A model generated the notes under the pieces. It made no database searches, was not told where the DNA came from, and worked only from the letters and a program-made list of their open reading frames with translations. From a virus (lineage: Duplodnaviria > Caudoviricetes), in the IMG/VR virus record IMGVR_UViG_3300020021_000008, positions 1-63,215 of that record: a stretch of DNA of 63,215 bases; one strand, given 5' to 3'. A program made the translations under genes and the position numbers. Positions 27,277-45,324 of the stretch are shown here, piece by piece; the first letter of the stretch is position 1, and every line of letters starts with the position of its first letter.

Positions 27277-27530
27277 TTACCGACGATCAAGGCCAAGCAA
27301 TCCTCGACCAGATAGTCGAGATCTCCAGCTCTCCACTGGAGGCCATGGAGTTGTGTGCCTCCATGCCAGCCACCTTTATCTACCACCACATCCCAGTATC
27401 TTCCACCGAGAACTTTCTCGTGGAGTACCTGGCCTCTATCCGCAGGTGCATCGAGGAGCACCAGCGTCTACACAACGCCCCAGACGGAACAGTCGACACT
27501 CCCGATACCGAGGCCAAGGAGCCCCTGTGA
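27273..27530 (+). CDS. Small helical protein, paralog of 36160-36387
   Basis: TDDQGQAILDQI versus TAEQGQALVDQI. Confidence 0.6.
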   Translation: MITDDQGQAILDQIVEISSSPLEAMELCASMPATFIYHHIPVSSTENFLVEYLASIRRCIEEHQRLHNAPDGTVDTPDTEAKEPL

Positions 27531-27958
27531 TGACCGAGATCCACCTAGTCGCCACCCTCGTTGGAATGCACTTCCGCCCACCAGCCAAGGCCGTGCTCGC
27601 GCACCTCCCCGCCGAAGCCCAAGTCGATCTAATCCCGGAGCCGGACAATCCCTACGACGAGTTCGCGGTCAAGGTGTTAGTCGATCCCGATGCAGTCCCT
27701 GAGGACGAGTACGAGGCGCTGAGAGAGGATCTCGCCGCAAGCGGCTTCGACCTAGAGGAGCTACTCGGTGGCCCCTTCCTCCAGCTTGGTTACGTCGGCT
27801 CCAAACCAGGCAAAGCCGGACCAGTCTTTGGTGTCACCTACGCCCCGGAGTTGCAACCTCAGCTGCTCTCCGCCGAGGACTACAAAGCCACTCTCGGGTT
27901 CGACGTAAGCGGCGATCCTCTAGTCCACATTACAATTATCACCGAGGAGGCAACCTGA
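27530..27958 (+). CDS. HIRAN-domain protein
   Basis: LVGMHFR..VDLIPEPDNPYDEFAVKV..LGYV; TGATG overlaps at both ends. Confidence 0.75.
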   Translation: MTEIHLVATLVGMHFRPPAKAVLAHLPAEAQVDLIPEPDNPYDEFAVKVLVDPDAVPEDEYEALREDLAASGFDLEELLGGPFLQLGYVGSKPGKAGPVFGVTYAPELQPQLLSAEDYKATLGFDVSGDPLVHITIITEEAT

Positions 27959-28824
27959 TGCCTACCAATCCCAACGACCTCAGACCTGATCTGGATCCAG
28001 TCGCGAGGCTGACTCGCGACATTCGCAACGCGGCAAGGACTCTCTCCACCGCCGAGGCGAGGTTCCTCGTCGATAGTTACTACCAAATGCAGCGGGATCG
28101 CATCCGTGCTGCTCACCAAGAGCGAACCCTCTCCGAAGGTGCCGAGCCCCACGACACCATGATGTGGCTGATGGGCCAGCGAGTCACCCTGGAGCAGCAG
28201 GTCGCCAGGGCACTGGACGCCTACAGCGCCAGCCATCCAGTAGGCGACTGGGCACGGAGCATATGCGGCATCGGCCCAGTGATCGCCGCCGGTCTCCTTG
28301 CTCACATCGATATCACCAAAGCCCCCAGCGTCGGTCATATCTGGCGCTTCGCCGGGCTGGACCCAACCGTGAAGTGGACCAAGGGCAACAAGCGCCCTTG
28401 GAACGGCGCGCTCAAGAGGCTCTGCTGGCTCATCGGCGAGTCGTTCGTCAAAGTGTCCAGCAATGAGAACGACATTTACGGCCAGATCTACAAGGCCCGC
28501 AAGGAACTCGAGATCCAGCGCAACGAGGCCGGTCGGTTCGCTGACCAGGCCAAAGCCGCGCTCGCCGAGAAGAAGTTCGGTGCCGACACCGAAGCTCGGA
28601 AGTGGTACGAGCTGGGAAAGTTACCGCCGGCAAGGATCCACCTGAGGTCCGAGCGTTACGCAGTTAAATTGTTCCTATCCCACCTCCACCACGTGATGTA
28701 CGAGAACCACTTTCACAAACCTCCTGAGAAACCCTACATCTTCAACGAGGGAGCAGCTATCGCCACGGGGACCGGACCGCATACCCATTACCTCGCCCCA
28801 CCGAACTGGCCCCGGAGCACCTAG
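27958..28824 (+). CDS. tasA: IS110-related Nop-domain RNA-guided DNA-binding protein (TasA-like, no nuclease domain)
   Basis: Coiled-coil N-terminus, GIGPVIAAGLLAHID..IWRFAGLDP..WNGALKRLCWLIGESFVK..YKARK..RYAVKLFLSHL; no DEDD RuvC and no IS110 SG motif; adjacent dual-spacer array. Confidence 0.8.
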   Translation: MPTNPNDLRPDLDPVARLTRDIRNAARTLSTAEARFLVDSYYQMQRDRIRAAHQERTLSEGAEPHDTMMWLMGQRVTLEQQVARALDAYSASHPVGDWARSICGIGPVIAAGLLAHIDITKAPSVGHIWRFAGLDPTVKWTKGNKRPWNGALKRLCWLIGESFVKVSSNENDIYGQIYKARKELEIQRNEAGRFADQAKAALAEKKFGADTEARKWYELGKLPPARIHLRSERYAVKLFLSHLHHVMYENHFHKPPEKPYIFNEGAAIATGTGPHTHYLAPPNWPRST

Positions 28825-28826
28825 AG

Positions 28827-28994
28827 GTGCTCCGGCAGTGGCGACACCCAATACTGAAACTAGCATTCCTGTCGGTGTTGGCAGGAGGAGTGGGTTACGT
28901 ACTTGGTGTAGCGTTTCCGCTGCCTTGGAATATAATTGCGTCAACTGTCAGTGGTGTATGTTTCGGGAGGTTCTACATACGCTGGAGCCGATAA
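28827..28994 (+). CDS. 55-aa two-TM membrane protein between the Tas gene and the array (below the ORF-track cutoff)
   Basis: GTG 28827: MLRQWRHPILKLAFLSVLAGGVGYVLGVAFPLPWNIIASTVSGVCFGRFYIRWSR*. Confidence 0.5.
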   Translation: MLRQWRHPILKLAFLSVLAGGVGYVLGVAFPLPWNIIASTVSGVCFGRFYIRWSR

Positions 28995-31106
28995 TGTCGA
29001 GAGTACCGTTATAACGGAGTAACTGAGACCACCGTAGCCAGGAGGCGCGAGTGTGCTAATAGTGGAGAGCAGGCCAAGGCCACTTGAGCCATCATCCACG
29101 AGTGTACCAATGAATGGGAGCGAGCCGCAAGCTATGAGTGTACCGGTATTCTGGAGCGAGCTGGAAAACGTGAGTGTACCGTTCTGGACGAGCCGGGGCC
29201 AGACGAAACTACCGAGTGTACCGATTAAGGTGATCGAGCCCAGTCGAATGAGTGTACCAAACTAGGCGAGCCAGCAGAGGTGAGTGTGCCATCAACGCTG
29301 AGCAAGCCGAGAAGTTGGAGTGTGCCGAAAGCTCTGTGCGAGCCGCGTTGTAGGAGTGTACCGCGTCCCACGAGCCCAGACGTGATATCTGAGCGTACCG
29401 ATTAAGGTGATCGAGCCACCACCTTTGAGTGTACCATGTTTGTAGAGCCCGAAGTTGTGAGAGTACCATCTATGGAGAGCATCTAACCGTGTAGTGAGAG
29501 CGTACCGTGCAAGAAGAGCGAGCCGGGAGTCTCGAGTGTGCCATGTTTGTAGAGCGAGCCCGAGGCTTTGCCTCAGCCAGCGACGATGAGAGTACCGCCG
29601 ACATGAAGCAGAGCACTTCGTGCTTCAGCCGTCATACTCGAGTGTTCCGGAGTATCTGAGCAAGCCAGCCCTCGTGAGTGTACCGTCGAACCTGAGCGAG
29701 CCAGGGGACATGAGTGTTCTGGAAGTGTGGAGCGGCAAGTCGAAGCGAGCCGGTAAGTGTGAGTGTACCGTGTGGAGCGAGCCGAGACGTGTGAGTGTGC
29801 CGAAAACTCTGAGCCACGCGCAGCCGTCGTTCGAGAGTGTGCCACAGCTATTGAGCCGGAGCGCGTGAGAGTACCATGTATCGCGAGCAGCCGAGAACTG
29901 CTAGTGTGCCGTGCAGTTCGAGCGGGCCACAGAACCTGAGCGTACCGTGCTATTGGAGCAGGGGCAAAGCCCACTCAGCCCCAACGGCTGAGAGTACCGT
30001 GGCAAACGAGCCGAGAGATGTGAGTGTGCTAGGGCATTTGAGCCAAGATACAGGAGTGTACCGCCCGCAGCGAGCCGAGGCCGCGAAGCGGCCTCTCTAG
30101 CCAATGATATCGAGTGTACCGTGAATAGGGAGCCCCAGAGCCGAGGCCATCGAGAGTACCAAGTTTCGCGAGCCAAAAGCACAGTGTGTACCGTACTGGA
30201 CGAGCCCCGACAGTTGAGCGTGCCGAGGTATCTGATCGAGCCGGATAGCAGGAGTGTACCGAGTTTGGAGAGCCAGGGTACGGGAGTGTACCGCCTGACA
30301 GGAGCTCCAGCGTGAGGCCAGCCGGATTGTCGGAGTGTGCCGCTTCCCACGAGCAAGCCCGGGTTGTTGAGTGTGCCATTTGGGCTGAGCCAAGCCAACA
30401 CCCGTGAGTGTACCAATGTCCTTGAGCGAGCCGACATGTTTGAGTGTACCGGAGTGTCAGAGACCACCAGCCGTGTCCTATAAGTGTGCCACAACTGTCG
30501 AGCCGATAGTCTTGAGTGTGCCAACATTACAGAGCAAGCCAACTGGCGCGAGTGTACCAAGCCTCTGGAGCAATAGTTGCTGCCCTAGCCGGAACAGCTG
30601 AGTGTACCGCCTTGCATGAGCAGCCGCCAAGCTTGAGTGTACCGTAATTACGGAGCCAACTGGTGTGAGTGTGCCAATCCTCTGGAGCCAACTCATGCGA
30701 GTGTACCGTACTTGTGGAGCAGCCGTCGGCCGTGTAGTGTACCGAGTGATGTGAGCAGCCATTTGATGGGAGTGTACCGTGCTGTTAGAGCAGCGAAGCC
30801 ACCTTTAGCCACAACTACTGAGAGTACCGGAATTCTGGAGCGAGCCAAGTGGAGTGAGTGTACCATGACTGCAGAGCCCCACAGACGAATGTCCCGAGTG
30901 TACCATGATTGCTGAGCCGCAAGGTCCGAGTGTGCCAAGGCAATAGAGCCGAGTCGAGGCCCGAAGGGCCTCTAGCCTGAAATCGTGAGTGTACCAAACC
31001 ATAGGAGCTGGGCTTCACCATCAGCCACAAGGGTAGAGTGTACCAAAGTCATGGAGCGGCGAAGCCGCTCTCAGCCAAAACACCAGAGAGTACCATCGAT
31101 ATGGAT
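28985..31106 (+). ncRNA. TIGR-like tandem dual-spacer guide-RNA array, about 54 units
   Basis: Unit AGCC-N9-GAGTGT(A/G)CC-N9-GAG(C), e.g. gagcgagcc-gcaagctat-gagtgtacc-ggtattctg-gagcgagct; 36-nt basic period; 54 central repeats counted by hand. Confidence 0.88.
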
Positions 31107-32633
31107 CGCGCTGACATTATCCCTACCCCAGAACAATCCGCCATCATCGACGCAGCGATCAATTCTCCGCTGTCCCTCATGATCAGCGCCGATGCCGGTT
31201 GTGCCAAGACCACTGCGCTTGAACTCGCCGCATGGGCCATGCCTCCAGGGCCATCGCTCGCCCTCGCCTTCGGAGTGAAAAACAAAACCGAACTCGAGCG
31301 TCGGTTCCCTCCTCACTTCACGGTGCTGACGCTGAATGGCCTCGGCCACCGGGCTTGGGGCCGAGCGTCCCGCCAGACCCTAATAGTCGATGAGCGTAAA
31401 GTCGGAAGGTTGTTAACTGCTGTGGCTAAGGACCAGGGCTATGCACTGTCGAAAGAGCAGTGGAGTGACGTCCGCTCTATCGTGTCGCACGCTCAGCACT
31501 TGGGCCTGGTCCCCAGTGACTATCCTCACAAGGGTCTCATGGTGGACACGCCGGAGAGCTGGGTGGACATTGCCGATGCGCTGCTCGTCACCGACGCCGA
31601 GCCCCTCCTGCCATTGGCCAGATCCGTGCTCTGTGCTGCCATTGCCGAGTCGTTCACGGGCCTGATCTCCTACGACGACCAGATCTACATGAGTGCTCTG
31701 TTCAACGGGAATTTTCCTCGCTTCCCGAGGGTGTTCGTGGACGAGGCCCAGGACCTCTCCCCCATCAACCACCTCCAGATTAAGCGAACCCTCCTCGACC
31801 GTCTCATTGTCGCCGGAGATGACAAGCAGGGGATATACGCCTGGAGAGGTGCCGACAGTAGTTCCATGCGCTCCATGCGAGCACTCCGCAAGGATTGGCT
31901 AGACCTGAGGCTCTCGGTGACCTTCCGCTGCCCGCGAGTCGTAGTGGCTCGCCAGCAGTCCCACGCCCCAGGTTTCACGGCAGCACCAGCCAACGCCGAC
32001 GGCGAGATCTGGGACTGGAGCTTCAACCACGACCGTTGGACCTGGGCCACCATTGGCGCCGAGCCCAAGCAGTCCGTAGCCATTCTCTGCCGCAACAACG
32101 CTCCCCTCATGGCGATTGCCATGAAGCTCATTCGCCAGGGTGTCGGGGCGGTGATGCTTGGGAGAGAGATCGGAAAGGGCCTAGTCTCGCTGGCCAAAAA
32201 GATCATCCCTCTCGATAGCATTCCCGCCTCCGAGTGCCGAAGGTTGATCCTGCAGTGGGCCTCGGACCAGATCGAAGTTGCTGCCGCCAACGACAAGCAC
32301 GAGAAAATCGCCGGTTTCGAGGATCGCCGAGACAGCCTCCTCGCTGTGCTGGACTCCGGTCCGCCTAACTCCGGTGCCATGCGCAAGGCGCTCGACGAAT
32401 TGTTCTCCCGTGCCTCTGGCCGAGTGACCCTCTCCACCATCCACAAGTTTAAGGGCCTCGAAAGTGATATTGTCGTCCACCTCGATCCGTGGCGAGTCCC
32501 CTCGAAGTGGGCGCGCTTAGCGTTGTCTGCCGGCGACGACAGACCCATGATGCAGGAGTTGAACCTTCGCTACGTAGTGGAGACTCGTACTCGCCATACT
32601 CTAATACTTGCCAACTTGGAGGATTTCCAATGA
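31101..32633 (+). CDS. UvrD/Rep-like SF1 helicase
   Basis: PTPEQ, ADAGCAKTT (variant Walker A), VFVDEAQD, GDDKQGIYAWRGA, TFRCP, STIHKFKGLE, YVVETR. Confidence 0.9.
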   Translation: MDRADIIPTPEQSAIIDAAINSPLSLMISADAGCAKTTALELAAWAMPPGPSLALAFGVKNKTELERRFPPHFTVLTLNGLGHRAWGRASRQTLIVDERKVGRLLTAVAKDQGYALSKEQWSDVRSIVSHAQHLGLVPSDYPHKGLMVDTPESWVDIADALLVTDAEPLLPLARSVLCAAIAESFTGLISYDDQIYMSALFNGNFPRFPRVFVDEAQDLSPINHLQIKRTLLDRLIVAGDDKQGIYAWRGADSSSMRSMRALRKDWLDLRLSVTFRCPRVVVARQQSHAPGFTAAPANADGEIWDWSFNHDRWTWATIGAEPKQSVAILCRNNAPLMAIAMKLIRQGVGAVMLGREIGKGLVSLAKKIIPLDSIPASECRRLILQWASDQIEVAAANDKHEKIAGFEDRRDSLLAVLDSGPPNSGAMRKALDELFSRASGRVTLSTIHKFKGLESDIVVHLDPWRVPSKWARLALSAGDDRPMMQELNLRYVVETRTRHTLILANLEDFQ

Positions 32634-40431: not shown

Positions 40432-41370
40432 ATGGTCAACAGCTCCTTCTCCACCGTATTGCCAACCCTGCAATTGGCCTGGGACTCCACCAGTCTCGGC
40501 GCCCTCAAAACCTGCGGGAGGTTCTACCAGTACGAACTGATTGAGGGCTGGACTCCCAAGCGCCCCAGCGTCCACCTCGTGTTCGGACAGATTTTCCACT
40601 CGGCTCTCGAGGAGTATGACCGGGCGAGGTTCCTGGGTGTGGACCACGAGGGAGCAACCATCGTTGCCGTGAGGGTGGTCTTGGAGCAGACCTGGAACAA
40701 GAGCCTCAACCGCCCTATCACCTGGGACGACAAGAACAAGAACCGCTTCACCCTGCTCCGCTCGATAGTCTGGTACCTCGAACAGTTCAAAATCGACCCC
40801 ATTGAGACCGTCCGGCTCGCCAACGGCAGACCTGCCGTGGAGTTGTCATTCCGCTACGAGAACGGCTATACCAGCACTCTGACCGGAGAGCCGTTCCTCT
40901 CGTGCGGTCACATGGACCGCCTCGGTACACTGAACGGCCAGACCTACATAGTTGACCGGAAAACGACTAAGTCCACGATCTCCCAGGACTTTTTCGGCAA
41001 GTTCAGCCCGGATAATCAGTTCAGCCAGTACGTGTTGGCGAGTAAGATCGTCTATGGCCTCCCCGTAGCCGGACTGATTGTCGACGCCGCCCAGGTCGCC
41101 ATCACGTTCAGCGCCTTTCAGCGGGGCTTCATCACCCGCACCCCGGCACAGATCGAAGAGTGGCACCAGGACCTTGGCCACTGGTTACAGCTCGCCGAGC
41201 GCTATGCCGCCAATAACTATTGGCCGATGAACGACAAAAGCTGCAACAACTACGGCGGCTGCAGGTACCGGGGGATCTGCAGCAAATCTCCGCAGGTGCG
41301 CCAGCAGTGGCTAGAGGCGGACTACAATAAGCGGGTGTGGGACCCACTCCAAATCCGAGGAGACGTGTGA
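40432..41370 (+). CDS. Cas4-like PD-(D/E)XK exonuclease
   Basis: KTC, FGQIFHSALE, VELSF, GHMDRL..IVDRKTT, QFSQY, C....GC.YRGIC Fe-S cysteines. Confidence 0.85.
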   Translation: MVNSSFSTVLPTLQLAWDSTSLGALKTCGRFYQYELIEGWTPKRPSVHLVFGQIFHSALEEYDRARFLGVDHEGATIVAVRVVLEQTWNKSLNRPITWDDKNKNRFTLLRSIVWYLEQFKIDPIETVRLANGRPAVELSFRYENGYTSTLTGEPFLSCGHMDRLGTLNGQTYIVDRKTTKSTISQDFFGKFSPDNQFSQYVLASKIVYGLPVAGLIVDAAQVAITFSAFQRGFITRTPAQIEEWHQDLGHWLQLAERYAANNYWPMNDKSCNNYGGCRYRGICSKSPQVRQQWLEADYNKRVWDPLQIRGDV

Positions 41371-41986: not shown

Positions 41987-42118
41987 CCTGGGAAAAGCCC
42001 CCTCCACCTCCAGTGCCGTTCGAAGTCCCCACCTCCGTCAACTGGCACTGCACTGCTTGCGGAGCCCGCAATCGCAACCACTGGGACCACTGCTCAGAGT
42101 GTGGTTCGGAGAAACCTC

Positions 42119-43024
42119 ATGCCCCCTCTCAGCCAGCACCAGTCCGCCACAACCACCAAGCTTCTACTTATTGGCGACTCGGGCAGTGGCAAGACGGGGG
42201 CGCTGGCATCCCTAGCTTCTGCGGGGTTCAATCTCCGAGTGCTGGATCTGGACAACGGCCTGGACGTGCTGCACAACCTCCTATCGGATCCAAGAAGTCC
42301 GTATGCGAAGGACTCCCTGGACCGAGTAAAATTCGTCACTCTGACCGAACCTATGAAGATGGTAGGGAAGACCCTGCAGCCGGTCCGAGTGGACGTGTGG
42401 CCCAGGACCATGAACATGCTCTACCACTGGATGGAGCCAGCCACGCCGGACTCCCCGGCCCTGGACCTCGGTTTGTTGACCTCGTGGACTCCGCAGGACG
42501 TACTTGTTATAGACTCGCTATCGACCTTCTCAACAGCCGCGATGAACTTCGTGCTCTCCATGAACGGTCGAGTGGGCAAGGCCCCCTTTCAGTCCGACTT
42601 CGGACAGGCACAGAACCTAGTCGAGTCGGCGTTGCAGATGCTCTTCGACAGCACAATAAAGTGCAACGTTATTGTGACTGCTCATATTGCGTTTATTGGC
42701 GAGGACAACGGGCCACTCCGGGGATACCCGGCCAGCCTCGGGAAAGCACTACCACCGAAGGTCGGGAGGTACTTCAATACTATGTTGGGTGTAAAAAGCA
42801 CGGGGCAGGGCAGTGCGGTCCGGCGCAAGATCCACACCAACACCCAGGGAGTGATCGACCTCAAGAACACGGCGCCCCTCCGCGTCCCGCCGGACTTTCC
42901 CATCGAGACTGGGCTAGCAGAGTACTTCAAACTGGTCCGAGGGGCCGGAACTTCGGTCCCCGTTACAACTGGTAACACCGTCGAGCCAACCCCTGCCATG
43001 GCTGCACTGGAGCCGCCGCGATGA
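42119..43024 (+). CDS. AAA_24/Sak4-like ATPase (recombinase-type)
   Basis: LLIGDSGSGKTG, LDLDNG, VLVIDSLS, VTAH. Confidence 0.8.
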   Translation: MPPLSQHQSATTTKLLLIGDSGSGKTGALASLASAGFNLRVLDLDNGLDVLHNLLSDPRSPYAKDSLDRVKFVTLTEPMKMVGKTLQPVRVDVWPRTMNMLYHWMEPATPDSPALDLGLLTSWTPQDVLVIDSLSTFSTAAMNFVLSMNGRVGKAPFQSDFGQAQNLVESALQMLFDSTIKCNVIVTAHIAFIGEDNGPLRGYPASLGKALPPKVGRYFNTMLGVKSTGQGSAVRRKIHTNTQGVIDLKNTAPLRVPPDFPIETGLAEYFKLVRGAGTSVPVTTGNTVEPTPAMAALEPPR

Positions 43025-43154: not shown

Positions 43155-43409
43155 ATGCCAACTCCTTCGGACTTGCGTCACTCCGATATCGAAGAAAAGC
43201 ACCGTACACAAATGAACGCCCTAGCCGCACTTCTTCAAGACGAGTTCCCCGAGTACGGCTTCGCCCTACTGGTTTTCGACTTCAACAGCCCAGGGAGGAT
43301 GAACTACATCAGCAACGCACAACGAGCCGATATGGTCAACGCACTCAAGGAGCTTATCACCAAGTTCGAAAGTCAAACACATGGCCAAGCACGCACCCCC
43401 ACAACCTAG
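43155..43409 (+). CDS. Hypothetical protein
   Basis: GGAG RBS; GFALLVFDF..NYISNAQRADM. Confidence 0.7.
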   Translation: MPTPSDLRHSDIEEKHRTQMNALAALLQDEFPEYGFALLVFDFNSPGRMNYISNAQRADMVNALKELITKFESQTHGQARTPTT

Positions 43410-43437
43410 CGCAACAACCTCCACGGAGTCCACTCCC

Positions 43438-43881
43438 ATGTCCGACAGCAACATCGCCACCGACTTCCGCGCCCTGCTCTCGAAGCCCGCCGACTCGATC
43501 GAGCGTCCGAAGCCCCTCCCTGCCGGAACCTATGAGGGGACCATCACCAAGTACGAATACGGCAAGTCCAAGGAGAAGAAGACCCCCTACGTGAGGTATT
43601 TCGTCCAGGTCAACTCCGCAGGCGAGGATGTGGACCCCGTTGAGATGGACGGAATCGACCTCAGCAAAAAGCAACTCCGTCGCGACTACTACCTCACCGA
43701 CGACGCCGAGTACCGAGTGAAGGAACTGTGGGAGTCCTGTGGCATTGACGGCACGGGGAGGGCTCTCGGCGAAATCCTCCCAGACCTCATCGGGTGCCAG
43801 GTGCTCTTGGAGGTCACTACGCGGAACAGCGACGACGGCAAGGACACCTACAACGACGTAGGCAACCTCAAAGGCGTGTAG
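43438..43881 (+). CDS. DUF669-like single-strand DNA-binding protein
   Basis: PLPAGTYEGTI..KSKEKKTPY OB-like pattern; beside the AAA and nuclease genes. Confidence 0.65.
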   Translation: MSDSNIATDFRALLSKPADSIERPKPLPAGTYEGTITKYEYGKSKEKKTPYVRYFVQVNSAGEDVDPVEMDGIDLSKKQLRRDYYLTDDAEYRVKELWESCGIDGTGRALGEILPDLIGCQVLLEVTTRNSDDGKDTYNDVGNLKGV

Positions 43882-43932: not shown

Positions 43933-45324
43933 ATGCCCATCACCGACGACTTCCAAGTAATCCACACTGCCTCCATTATCATCAATCGTGACGAGCGCCA
44001 GCGCAGCAAAATCGACACAGGGTCGCTTCGCGACAGCATCCGGCGCAACGGCCTCATCAGCCCGGTCGTAGTGACCAGGGATCTGGTGCTGGTGGCCGGT
44101 GAGCGCCGCCTTACGGCGTGTCGAGAACTCGGTCACGAGACCATTGCAGTGAGGTTCGTGGAGGATCTCTCGCCCCTGGAACTCATGATCATTGAGCTAG
44201 AGGAGAACCTCAAACGGAGTGATTTGCCGTGGCAGGACGAAGTGAAGGCCGTGGCGAAACTTCACGAGTTGTACTGCACCATCACCCCTGGATGGTCGCA
44301 GGTTCAATCCGCCGAGGCCCTCTCCATCGCCGGCTCGTACTTGAGTTCCATTCTACGCGTAGCACGAGAACTCGATGACCCCCGTATCTCGACGGCTACT
44401 GGGGTGATGCCCGCGTACAACGTCCTCGCACGCATTGATGAGCGCAGGATCGGCGATGCAGTAGGCGCCATCATGGATGCCGGGGAGGAGATATTTGCGC
44501 CGCCATCAATCCCGGCGCCACCGCTCAAGCCCGGCGAGAAAGCCCCACCTAAGGCCACCGTGATCGCCGCTCCGGCAGAGTCAATTCTCCAAACATCCTT
44601 TTTCTCCTGGGCACCCCAGTACACCGGACCCAGGTTCAACTTCATCCACTGCGACTTCCCCTACGGAATGAACGTGTTCGGTGGGGCTATGAGCGGCCGT
44701 GACAAGTGGGCCACCACAGCCCAAGGGAAGGCACCGTATAGTGATAGCAAAGAGGACTACTGGAACCTCATCGCGTGTCTCTGCGATAACCTCGACCGAA
44801 TAATGAGCCCGCAAGGGCATCTGATGTTCTGGTTCTCCATGGAGCACTACGTGGCGACTCTCGAGGCTTTCCGCAAGCAAGCACCATCACTGATATTCAG
44901 CCCTTTCCCCCTAGTGTGGGTAAAGAGCGACAACGTGGGGATCCTCCCCGACTCCAACCGTGGTCCCCGGCGAGTGTACGAGACCGCCCTAGTCGCCTCG
45001 CGAGAGGACCGCTTCATCGTCAAACCTGTTGGCAACGCCATCTTCGCTCCCACCAACAAGGACCACCATCCCAGCACCAAGCCCGAGCCCGTGCTCAAGC
45101 ATTTCTTCCAGATGTTCGTGGACGAGAACACCACCCTGTTCGACCCAACGTGTGGGAGTGCCAGTGCTCTACGCGCGGCGGAGTGCCTCGGAGCGAAACG
45201 AGTCCTTGGCCTCGAGTCCGACATCGAACACCACGCAAATGCGTGCTCAGCGCTCAAGCTCTTTCGCACTCTCCGCGCTGCGGCGAACCTGCTGGCGAAG
45301 CCCGAACCCCTGCCGGCACCATGA
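43933..45324 (+). CDS. ParB-N domain fused to an N4/N6 DNA methyltransferase-like domain
   Basis: LVAGERRLTA..ELEENLKR; CDFPYG (DPPY variant), HPSTKP, FDPTCGSAS. Confidence 0.8.
   Translation: MPITDDFQVIHTASIIINRDERQRSKIDTGSLRDSIRRNGLISPVVVTRDLVLVAGERRLTACRELGHETIAVRFVEDLSPLELMIIELEENLKRSDLPWQDEVKAVAKLHELYCTITPGWSQVQSAEALSIAGSYLSSILRVARELDDPRISTATGVMPAYNVLARIDERRIGDAVGAIMDAGEEIFAPPSIPAPPLKPGEKAPPKATVIAAPAESILQTSFFSWAPQYTGPRFNFIHCDFPYGMNVFGGAMSGRDKWATTAQGKAPYSDSKEDYWNLIACLCDNLDRIMSPQGHLMFWFSMEHYVATLEAFRKQAPSLIFSPFPLVWVKSDNVGILPDSNRGPRRVYETALVASREDRFIVKPVGNAIFAPTNKDHHPSTKPEPVLKHFFQMFVDENTTLFDPTCGSASALRAAECLGAKRVLGLESDIEHHANACSALKLFRTLRAAANLLAKPEPLPAP

Follow-up and report, generated by a model that had tools for sequence, protein, structure and literature searches.

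This study concerns an array of tandem interspaced guide RNAs (TIGR array) with its tas gene in a tailed phage (Duplodnaviria; Caudoviricetes), IMG/VR record IMGVR_UViG_3300020021_000008. The window, by which we mean the whole stretch of DNA that was analysed, is a complete virus genome of 63,215 bases, called a soil phage, and carries tailed-phage genes for a portal, a terminase, a major head protein, a DNA polymerase, an exonuclease, a Sak4-like annealing protein, and a single-stranded DNA-binding protein (SSB). The array starts 160 bases downstream of tas. A first-pass annotation had noticed recurring spacers in this array and had proposed that its guides arise by duplication, shuffling of half-guides, and point mutation. 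Herein, we confirm that the recurrence of half-guides and near-duplicate guides in the window is real, and we weigh what may have produced it. The two features at the centre of the analysis are the following.

27958..28824, plus strand: tas gene, encoding a 288-residue protein of the TasA type, with a Nop domain and without a nuclease domain
28985..31108, plus strand: TIGR array of 54 units, parsed by its loop repeat and its repeat families

A phmmer search against solved structures paired Tas residues 78-189 with the Nop regions of TaTasR (PDB 9mty, residues 153-267; E 7.1e-12) and of TasH (21kl; E 2.5e-9). The protein also matches Pfam PF02371 (E 2.6e-5; 24.9 bits, over the cut-off of 21.3) and PHROG 4285 (E 3.5e-50), and its C-terminal HTHYLAPPNWP aligns to HVDYIKPPHWN of TaTasR (9mty). 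Since 77 residues lie N-terminal to the Nop match (vs 152 in TaTasR) and a Pfam search at E up to 0.01 returned no nuclease family (HNH, RuvC), Tas is best described as a TasA-type protein. Judged by this protein and by the logic of its repeats, the window locus is a TIGR-TasA system of the dual-repeat kind.

Each unit of the array consists of an edge repeat (GAGC..GCC, 5-32 nucleotides, nt), spacer A (9 nt), the loop repeat GAGTGTRCC (9 nt), and spacer B (9 nt), in that order. The array opens with an edge and closes with a truncated edge, GATCG; its 54 units hold 108 nine-mers, as the first-pass annotation had counted. Two alternating repeats with spacers of about 9 nt are hence found beside tas, though the length of the edges varies: among 53 edges, 13 have 5 nt, 16 have 9 nt, and 13 have at least 22 nt (22-32). 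Units measure between 32 and 59 nt, only 16 of 53 having exactly 36 nt, so the array departs from the uniform 36-nt units of the dual-repeat subtype; the array of the closest relative, a 58-kilobase (kb) phage that we call G001, is likewise irregular in unit length. Six of the 13 long edges (units 2, 16, 25, 28, 51, and 53) fold into hairpins that no more than 15 of 200 shuffles could match, each lying within a single edge, between units.

On the plus strand, CC precedes and GA follows every spacer, which would fit the orientation of box C and box D. The preceding triplet is ACC, GCC, or rarely GAC, and GAG or GA comes after the spacer, at both repeat types. The box motifs of TasR are given as CCA and UG by Faure et al. 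(2025; PMC12045711). Relatives of this Tas clade have CCA, and the window array has CC followed by a purine (G or A). The spacers themselves are compositionally biased, with a purine as first base in all 54 spacers B and in 47 of 54 spacers A, and with A at position 4 of 31 of 54 spacers A. Three edges end in CAGAC rather than GCC (29190-29204, 29372-29381, and 30874-30886, before units 6, 11, and 50), and two of these three precede the units whose spacer B is GATTAAGGT.

All five spacer pairs singled out in the first-pass annotation are present in the array, at the coordinates given there. Together with two further pairs of similar spacers B that were not among them (units 4/48 and 5/31), they involve the following units, where dA and dB are the numbers of mismatches between spacers A and between spacers B.

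29127..29189, plus strand: units 4 and 5, whose spacers B (GGTATTCTG and GTTCTGGAC) are one base off those of units 48 and 31, respectively
29205..29240, plus strand: unit 6, GAAACTACC / GATTAAGGT, edge GATCGAGCC; spacer B at 29223
29309..29335, plus strand: unit 9, GAGAAGTTG / GAAAGCTCT; loop GAGTGTGCC
29345..29371, plus strand: unit 10, GCGTTGTAG / GCGTCCCAC
29382..29417, plus strand: unit 11, GTGATATCT / GATTAAGGT, edge GATCGAGCC; spacer B at 29400; dA of 6 to unit 6
29418..29444, plus strand: unit 12, ACCACCTTT / ATGTTTGTA; spacer B at 29436
29525..29551, plus strand: unit 15, GGGAGTCTC / ATGTTTGTA; spacer B at 29543; dB of 0 and dA of 7 to unit 12
29784..29810, plus strand: unit 21, GAGACGTGT / GAAAACTCT; loop GAGTGTGCC; dA of 3 and dB of 1 to unit 9
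30175..30201, plus strand: unit 31, AAAAGCACA / GTACTGGAC; dB of 1 and dA of 7 to unit 5
30324..30350, plus strand: unit 35, GGATTGTCG / GCTTCCCAC; dA of 3 and dB of 1 to unit 10
30541..30567, plus strand: unit 41, AACTGGCGC / AAGCCTCTG
30658..30684, plus strand: unit 44, AACTGGTGT / AATCCTCTG; dA of 2 and dB of 1 to unit 41
30811..30837, plus strand: unit 48, ACAACTACT / GGAATTCTG; dB of 1 and dA of 5 to unit 4

All spacers were compared with one another against column-preserving shuffles, in which the base composition of each of the nine columns was retained, separately for A and B (n=2000). Spacers B resemble each other far more often than these shuffles allow: there are 2 identical pairs (0.01 expected), 7 pairs with at most one mismatch (0.36 expected), and 15 with at most two (4.30 expected), and none of the three counts was reached in 2000 shuffles. 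The chance-level similarity that the first-pass annotation had named as its own refutation is therefore not what the array displays. No such excess exists among spacers A (0 pairs vs 0.58 at up to one mismatch; 4 vs 5.89 at up to two, reached in 1684 of 2000 shuffles) or between A and B (1 vs 0.55 at up to one mismatch in the column shuffles). Whole guides recur as well. Three pairs of units, namely 9/21, 10/35, and 41/44, differ at no more than 4 of 18 spacer positions (dA+dB) where 0.046 such pairs were expected (0 of 1000 shuffles), which bears out the earlier observation of near-duplicate guide pairs.

The similarity also tells where a guide begins and ends. In the 15 B-B pairs with up to two mismatches, the spacers A of the same units differ by 5.4 on average (6.29 in random pairs; reached in 156 of 20000 permutations), and among the 7 most closely B-related pairs the same-unit dA is at most 3 in three, whereas the A of the next unit differs by 6-7 in all seven. 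Pairs that are similar across an edge (B-edge-A) at a total distance of up to 4 are absent from the window. Because the A of the same unit is similar and that of the next is not, the co-varying unit is A-loop-B, in agreement with the first-pass choice of GAGTGTRCC as the internal repeat. Units 12 and 15 join an identical spacer B to different spacers A. Units 6 and 11 are not simply a case of the same B with a different A, since two rare edges are common to them, upstream the one ending in CAGAC (in 3 of 54 units) and downstream GATCGAGCC (3 of 54), and they differ only in spacer A (6 of 9 positions) and in one loop base.

As an observation beside these counts, 8 of the 12 units 4-15 (29127-29551) have a relative elsewhere in the array, and this stretch contributes to 6 of the 7 related pairs; it was chosen post hoc and for which we claim no significance.

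The reuse extends well beyond the window. A search with the Tas protein gave 18 viral and 55 metagenome loci (labelled L plus a number where they have to be told apart). Of the 72 loci besides the closest relative, 37 could be parsed cleanly, and 35 were dropped because no 9-mer was repeated at least 5 times, because the spacing was irregular, or because the locus was truncated; the 37 parsed loci, the window, and G001 make up 24 non-redundant arrays. Pooled counts were made of pairs with at most one mismatch against 500 shuffles, omitting units whose spacers are not 9 nt. In the 23 arrays besides the window, 18 A-A pairs (1.62 expected) and 13 B-B pairs (1.84 expected) were found, neither number being reached in 500 shuffles, with no excess of A-B pairs (2 vs 2.80; reached in 380 of 500). 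Between eight arrays of one repeat family, the picture is the same (A-A 21 vs 3.4 and B-B 14 vs 3.8, 0 of 200 shuffles each; A-B 9 vs 6.6, reached in 46 of 200). The clade as a whole thus reuses its spacers, and does so in register, A recurring as A and B as B; the restriction to B in the window is not seen in the pooled relatives. Among 36 related pairs in the 24 arrays, the other half of the guide has at most 3 mismatches in 12 (vs about 4% of all pairs); in the other 24 it has at least 4, as unrelated pairs do. Copies of whole units therefore occur alongside sharing of one half only. The polarity of related units within arrays is not significant.

Some recurring guides stand out individually. 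The unit AATTATGCA / ATAAAACTC is the last or next-to-last in four otherwise different marine arrays (L049 unit 20, L010 unit 17, L042 unit 8, and L056 unit 18; the L042 copy has one mismatch in A) and forms a conserved anchor guide at the tas-distal end. In L010, units 2, 4, and 8 carry one spacer A, AGGGCCCTT, which contains the palindrome AGGGCCCT, with three different B; in L013, units 16, 18, and 19 do the same with ATGGGGCGA.

Arrays of related phages, the comparison of which had been put forward in the first-pass annotation as a check, display copies, losses, and re-pairings of units as well as point substitutions. One close pair consists of L014 and L015, whose flanks differ at 106 of 4808 positions (2.2%) and whose arrays are collinear. 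Three 36-nt units are present in only one of the two arrays, and 5 of 14 positional unit pairs are identical. Their repeats differ at 5 of 252 positions (2.0%). Between positional orthologues, 46 of 253 spacer positions are changed (18.2%; Fisher p 5.6e-25), 8-fold above flanks or repeats. By hand count, 29 of these 46 differences sit in three replaced units and 12 more in three reshuffled units at the array start; in the other eight units, 5 of 145 positions are changed (3.4%), a rate close to that of the flanks. In some same-position units, 8-12 of 18 spacer bases are changed between intact neighbouring repeats.

In other pairs (L006/L055 and L046/L048), units have been gained or lost internally and not at one end. 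Copies and moves can be followed by their repeat variants and positions. L061 contains two identical units (2 and 11), including a loop, GAGAGCGCC, found nowhere else in its array, which is split into sub-arrays on either side of tas (1263-1370 and 2178-2537) with one of the identical guides in each. Units 12-13 of L050 are a further copy of the block found in L012 as units 6-7, loop variant GAGAGAAAC included, leaving two identical units in L050, and unit 9 of L046 equals unit 3 of L048, its position having shifted relative to conserved anchor units. Re-pairing is evident among L005, L036, L037, and L041, where one A occurs with different B and vice versa. It is also seen in L060, whose units 7-9 read A7/B7, A9/B7, and A9/B9: this is the exact product of a one-unit out-of-phase tandem duplication with its break points in loop repeats.

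We favour, with moderate confidence, the reading that recurring half-guides and near-duplicates are paralogues copied inside the array DNA, and that repeat-mediated duplication, recombination, and point mutation reshuffle the guides. Since a 9-nt repeat recurs every 18 nt, slippage during replication, or recombination of an unequal or ectopic kind, could duplicate, delete, or move stretches of the array, each comprising one unit or a whole number of units. The outcome of such events is what the relatives exhibit; the enzymes would be the phage's own exonuclease, Sak4-like annealing protein, and SSB, all three candidate catalysts of rearrangement, or host recombination, and no capture enzyme would be needed for these steps. 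Break points in edge repeats would copy a whole guide. Break points in loop repeats would yield an out-of-phase copy in which the A of one unit is joined to the B of the preceding one while both parents are kept, the pattern seen in L060. The copies would then diverge by ordinary point mutation, as L014 and L015 have done, and recombination may also join co-infecting relatives and so spread units between them. The interpretation given in the first-pass annotation is borne out in part: each process that it proposed is visible in the relatives' arrays, though duplication is not the sole source of units, and the notion of shuffling at the central repeat suits the L060 re-pairing but not the change between units 6 and 11, which is no simple crossover at that repeat.

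The Tas of G001, the closest relative, is 84% identical to that of the window, and its array has the same loop repeat and 29 units, of which units 10 and 11 form an adjacent near-duplicate. The third codon positions of tas and of the helicase gene downstream of the array are 47-53% identical between the two phages, and since these positions are near saturation, the near absence of common spacers is uninformative. One guide has clearly been kept.

29579..29605, plus strand: unit 16, AGCGACGAT / GCCGACATG; the sole guide clearly kept in G001

Compared with G001 unit 21, its spacer A is identical and its spacer B has one mismatch (17 of 18 positions), and both units have an odd AAGC edge start. 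Given that neutral sites are nearly saturated, this conservation points to selection on the guide. The unit was found elsewhere in G001 only, its counterpart in the relative lying at 902-928 of L025; metagenome locus L031 does not differ from G001. When B is joined to A in reverse complement, unit 16 encodes A-D-M/V-I-V-A. Its matches in a set of one genome per species were considered as targets and rejected: there are at least 120 hits over many phyla, 88 of the 120 listed being gapless, and all gapless hits inspected read A-D-V/M-I-V-A in unrelated proteins, a common peptide motif of genomes rich in G and C.

Closer to the window itself, phage GenBank records held no match that would be a closer relative, and a scan for the repeat pattern returned 5 viral contigs, none with common spacers, but nothing among genome contigs. 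The runs in which the sequence occurs are DNA runs only. In two of them, from the probable source sample, the assembled contigs match the window exactly, and no within-sample variation of the array is visible in them. Short array pieces from two other studies are either identical to the window or differ at 6 letters in 151. The latter is a contig of another soil study covering 30533-30683 (units 41-44); three of its differences are listed (C>T at 30611, A>G at 30641, and C>T at 30651), of which two are located in spacers B and the third in a loop. At 30702-30848, the piece that follows from the same study does not differ from the window.

No gene for capturing spacers is evident in the phage, as the first-pass annotation had supposed. 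Six-frame searches of the complete 63,215-base record gave no match to Cas1 (PF01867; the control matched in 7 of 14 genomes), to reverse transcriptase (PF00078), or to tyrosine integrase, the controls for the latter two also being matched, and PHROG scans of 40 of the larger open reading frames (ORFs), the smaller ones not being scanned, found none of the three. A host-encoded acquisition factor may nevertheless exist. For targets, we infer a layout in which one strand reads spacer A and then B in reverse complement, from the "C - 5" cleavage rule (Faure et al., PMC12045711) and the 8-nt 3' overhang listed in the table of a review. Against the phage's own genome, the 54 guides gave no match with up to 2 mismatches in either two-strand geometry at gaps of 0-2, and the 18 matches at 3 mismatches are at chance level (about 13 expected by hand estimate). 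So are the 13 matches of window guides in G001 with up to 3 mismatches (one at 2), the 6 of the reverse scan, and the 5 of G001 against itself. In viral contigs, the composite targets of units 41 and 44 gave 19 hits in one geometry and 17 in the other, about 12 independent ones in each after near-identical phages are collapsed, and no homology connects the places matched by the two variants. None of these searches yielded a target. Finally, sharing of codon phase between the A and the reverse-complemented B of one guide was null (pooled -19.0 vs -24.6; reached in 801 of 2000).

How do these results bear on explanations other than copying? That the similarities arise by chance among 108 short, compositionally biased 9-mers deserves virtually no credence. 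The bias is certainly there (a purine begins every B), and A-A and A-B comparisons in the window lack an excess, but shuffles that preserve this very bias never attain the B-B or whole-unit counts, and the excess returns in the 23 other arrays. A more serious proposal is that related guides were acquired separately from related targets, by some other, possibly host-encoded, route; near-duplicates would then follow allelic or escape variants, and guides that share one half would aim at sites with a common 9-bp half-site, such as a repeated motif. Several facts agree with it. Loop and edge variants mostly differ between related window units, as they would if kinship were limited to the spacers, the internal units without parents in close relatives imply some input besides copying, the near-intact unit 16 suggests that targets constrain some spacers, and the contig from the other soil study over units 41-44 has two of its three listed differences in spacers B. 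Yet swapped spacers reportedly still function (Faure et al., PMC12045711), and spacers A and B do not match each other, which together disfavour independent capture in either orientation. Rare repeat variants are inherited along with their spacers, the exact duplicate of L061, the moved block of L050, and the out-of-phase pattern of L060 require no target, the phage is devoid of an acquisition gene, and homology does not link the composite-target hits of units 41 and 44. We consider separate acquisition unlikely.

Diversification in place, for instance by localised hypermutation or gene conversion of single spacers and not by ordinary recombination with background mutation, would account for units 6 and 11, which differ almost exclusively in spacer A between common rare edges, for the same-position units of L014 and L015 whose spacers changed while the repeats stayed intact, and for the 8-fold excess of spacer divergence over the flanks. 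Against it, leaving out the three replaced units, which hold 29 differences over 54 positions, L014 and L015 spacers differ at 17 of 199 positions (8.5%), and leaving out the three reshuffled units too brings the figure down to that of the eight remaining units, close to the 2.2% of the flanks (both by hand count). For the replaced units, it is an equally good explanation that one unit was lost and a different one gained at the same repeat, and the lack of a reverse transcriptase speaks against mutagenesis of the retroelement type. Targeted diversification thus seems to us improbable.

Copying within the array, the reading that we prefer, has its own difficulties, and all of the following count against it. 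In the window, 6 of the 7 related pairs do not agree in their loop variant, just 1 of 7 has an identical downstream edge and 1 more an edge of equal length, and repeat variants marking common descent are confined to units 6 and 11. Even there, the concentration of change in A (6 of 9 positions vs 0 of 9 in B; two-sided Fisher p about 0.009 by hand), between rare edges that both units share, calls for replacement of a patch, which neither one crossover nor uniform drift would give. Nor does the model foresee that window reuse should be restricted to B (7 pairs vs 0 in A; two-sided binomial p about 0.016 by hand). Related units in the arrays of the clade are not significantly nearer to each other than others are (mean separation 7.28 vs 8.53, reached in 651 of 5000; 7 of 36 adjacent). 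The events are clearest in relatives that have strictly regular arrays of 36-nt units and a Tas only 49-62% identical to that of the window. Units 6, 8, and 9 of L055 and units 3-9 of L048 are internal units without a recognisable parent, and as they separate close relatives, duplication is not the only source of spacers; the model explains reuse, not the first origin of parentless spacers. A re-paired guide, moreover, would have no matching two-part target when it arises, and its benefit is uncertain.

Should copying hold, one may go further and regard TIGR arrays as self-diversifying guide libraries, in which interleaved 9-nt repeats keep re-pairing half-guides A and B, point mutation adds variants, and co-infecting phages supply a common pool. 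The repertoire would then be inherited and combinatorial, closer to a family of innate receptors than to a memory of the CRISPR type, and would have no dedicated adaptation machine. This extension is possible but doubtful, and we offer it tentatively; if true, the search for such a machine is misdirected.

Clustered box C/D small nucleolar RNA (snoRNA) genes grow by tandem duplication. Like them (they are mentioned in PMC12045711), TIGR arrays specify two-guide RNAs with motifs resembling boxes C and D, occur as tandem clusters, and are encoded in the germline instead of being captured. Box C/D snoRNAs differ in that they guide RNA methylation, work with another set of proteins, are not phage-borne, and have far longer units without 9-nt repeats. 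With CRISPR arrays, TIGR arrays share repeats and guide spacers, and in CRISPR too, recombination between repeats can delete or duplicate spacers (PMC12045711). The phage has no Cas1-Cas2, though, its relatives' gains are not polarised to one end, and its 9-nt spacers are paired; the two kinds of TIGR repeat permit out-of-phase copying and hence new A-B pairings, for which CRISPR has no counterpart.

Within the TIGR systems, the window locus is most like the dual-repeat TIGR-TasA loci of Faure et al. (PMC12045711): a Nop-domain Tas lies beside an array of two alternating short repeats with 9-nt spacers, the order is edge-A-loop-B with (truncated) edges at both array ends, and the system is phage-borne without adaptation genes. 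Its 54 units exceed the "most often 5 to 15" of that source. The edges of 5-32 nt and units of 32-59 nt contrast with dual-repeat guides of uniformly 36 nt (Xu et al. 2026 preprint, 10.64898/2026.09.09.750476), as do the stable hairpins in some long edges, the CC plus purine in place of a CCA box C, and the next gene starting in the last unit with no terminator between. In its variable unit length and in the palindromic sequence at the place of the edge repeat, the array resembles stem-loop TIGR arrays (PMC12045711; 10.64898/2026.09.09.750476). The window hairpins, however, form within one edge and do not pair the two ends of one unit, and the loop repeat is strictly conserved. The preprint (10.64898/2026.09.09.750476) further states that all stem-loop clades lack the C-terminal stretch, whereas the window Tas appears to have this His/Tyr stretch in alignment with TaTasR; a C-terminal loop with conserved Tyr/His serves processing in the dual-repeat subtype (Xu et al., 10.64898/2026.09.09.750476). 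That edges of 5-32 nt are tolerated in a system of the dual-repeat type has a bearing on guide processing.

Both PMC12045711 and 10.64898/2026.09.09.750476, which come from the same laboratory, describe the emergence and expansion of TIGR arrays and their gain of spacers as open, and judging by the listings of full-text literature searches no paper analyses the evolution of TIGR arrays, although supplementary tables might contain such an analysis. Our comparison gives a testable partial answer to this acknowledged question of guide origin: recurrence in register, gains, losses, copies, and re-pairings of unit size, and spacer turnover several-fold above the surroundings, in a phage without a capture enzyme. 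If this is general, long arrays may contain many guides that are not records of encounters but variants or by-products, target prediction should handle families of guides together, and rearrangement at the repeats is to be expected in engineered multi-guide arrays.

The remaining features concern the genes around the array and those that might act on it.

27353..27958, plus strand: ORF of 201 residues that stops at the tas start; its sole match is weak (phrog_27141, E 2e-4)
31098..32633, plus strand: UvrD-like helicase gene (Pfam UvrD-helicase, E 1.4e-11; phrog_1967, E 2.3e-63)
40432-41370, plus strand: exonuclease gene (PHROG match, E 3.8e-14)
42101-43024, plus strand: Sak4-like single-strand annealing protein gene (PHROG match, E 3.3e-16)
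43381-43881, plus strand: SSB gene (PHROG match, E 1e-4)

The 201-residue ORF is kept upstream of tas in the closest relative (61% over 137 residues) and in none of the other searched loci. On the 3' side of the array there is no terminator, and the helicase gene begins inside the final unit: at the array end (31095-31108), its start codon sits within spacer B, an arrangement also found in G001, and array and helicase may be co-transcribed. Lastly, an ORF of 463 residues at 43933-45324, 13 kb from the array, combines a ParB-like N-terminal domain with a part resembling DNA methyltransferases; TasA loci are sometimes operonic with ParB homologues (Faure et al., PMC12045711).

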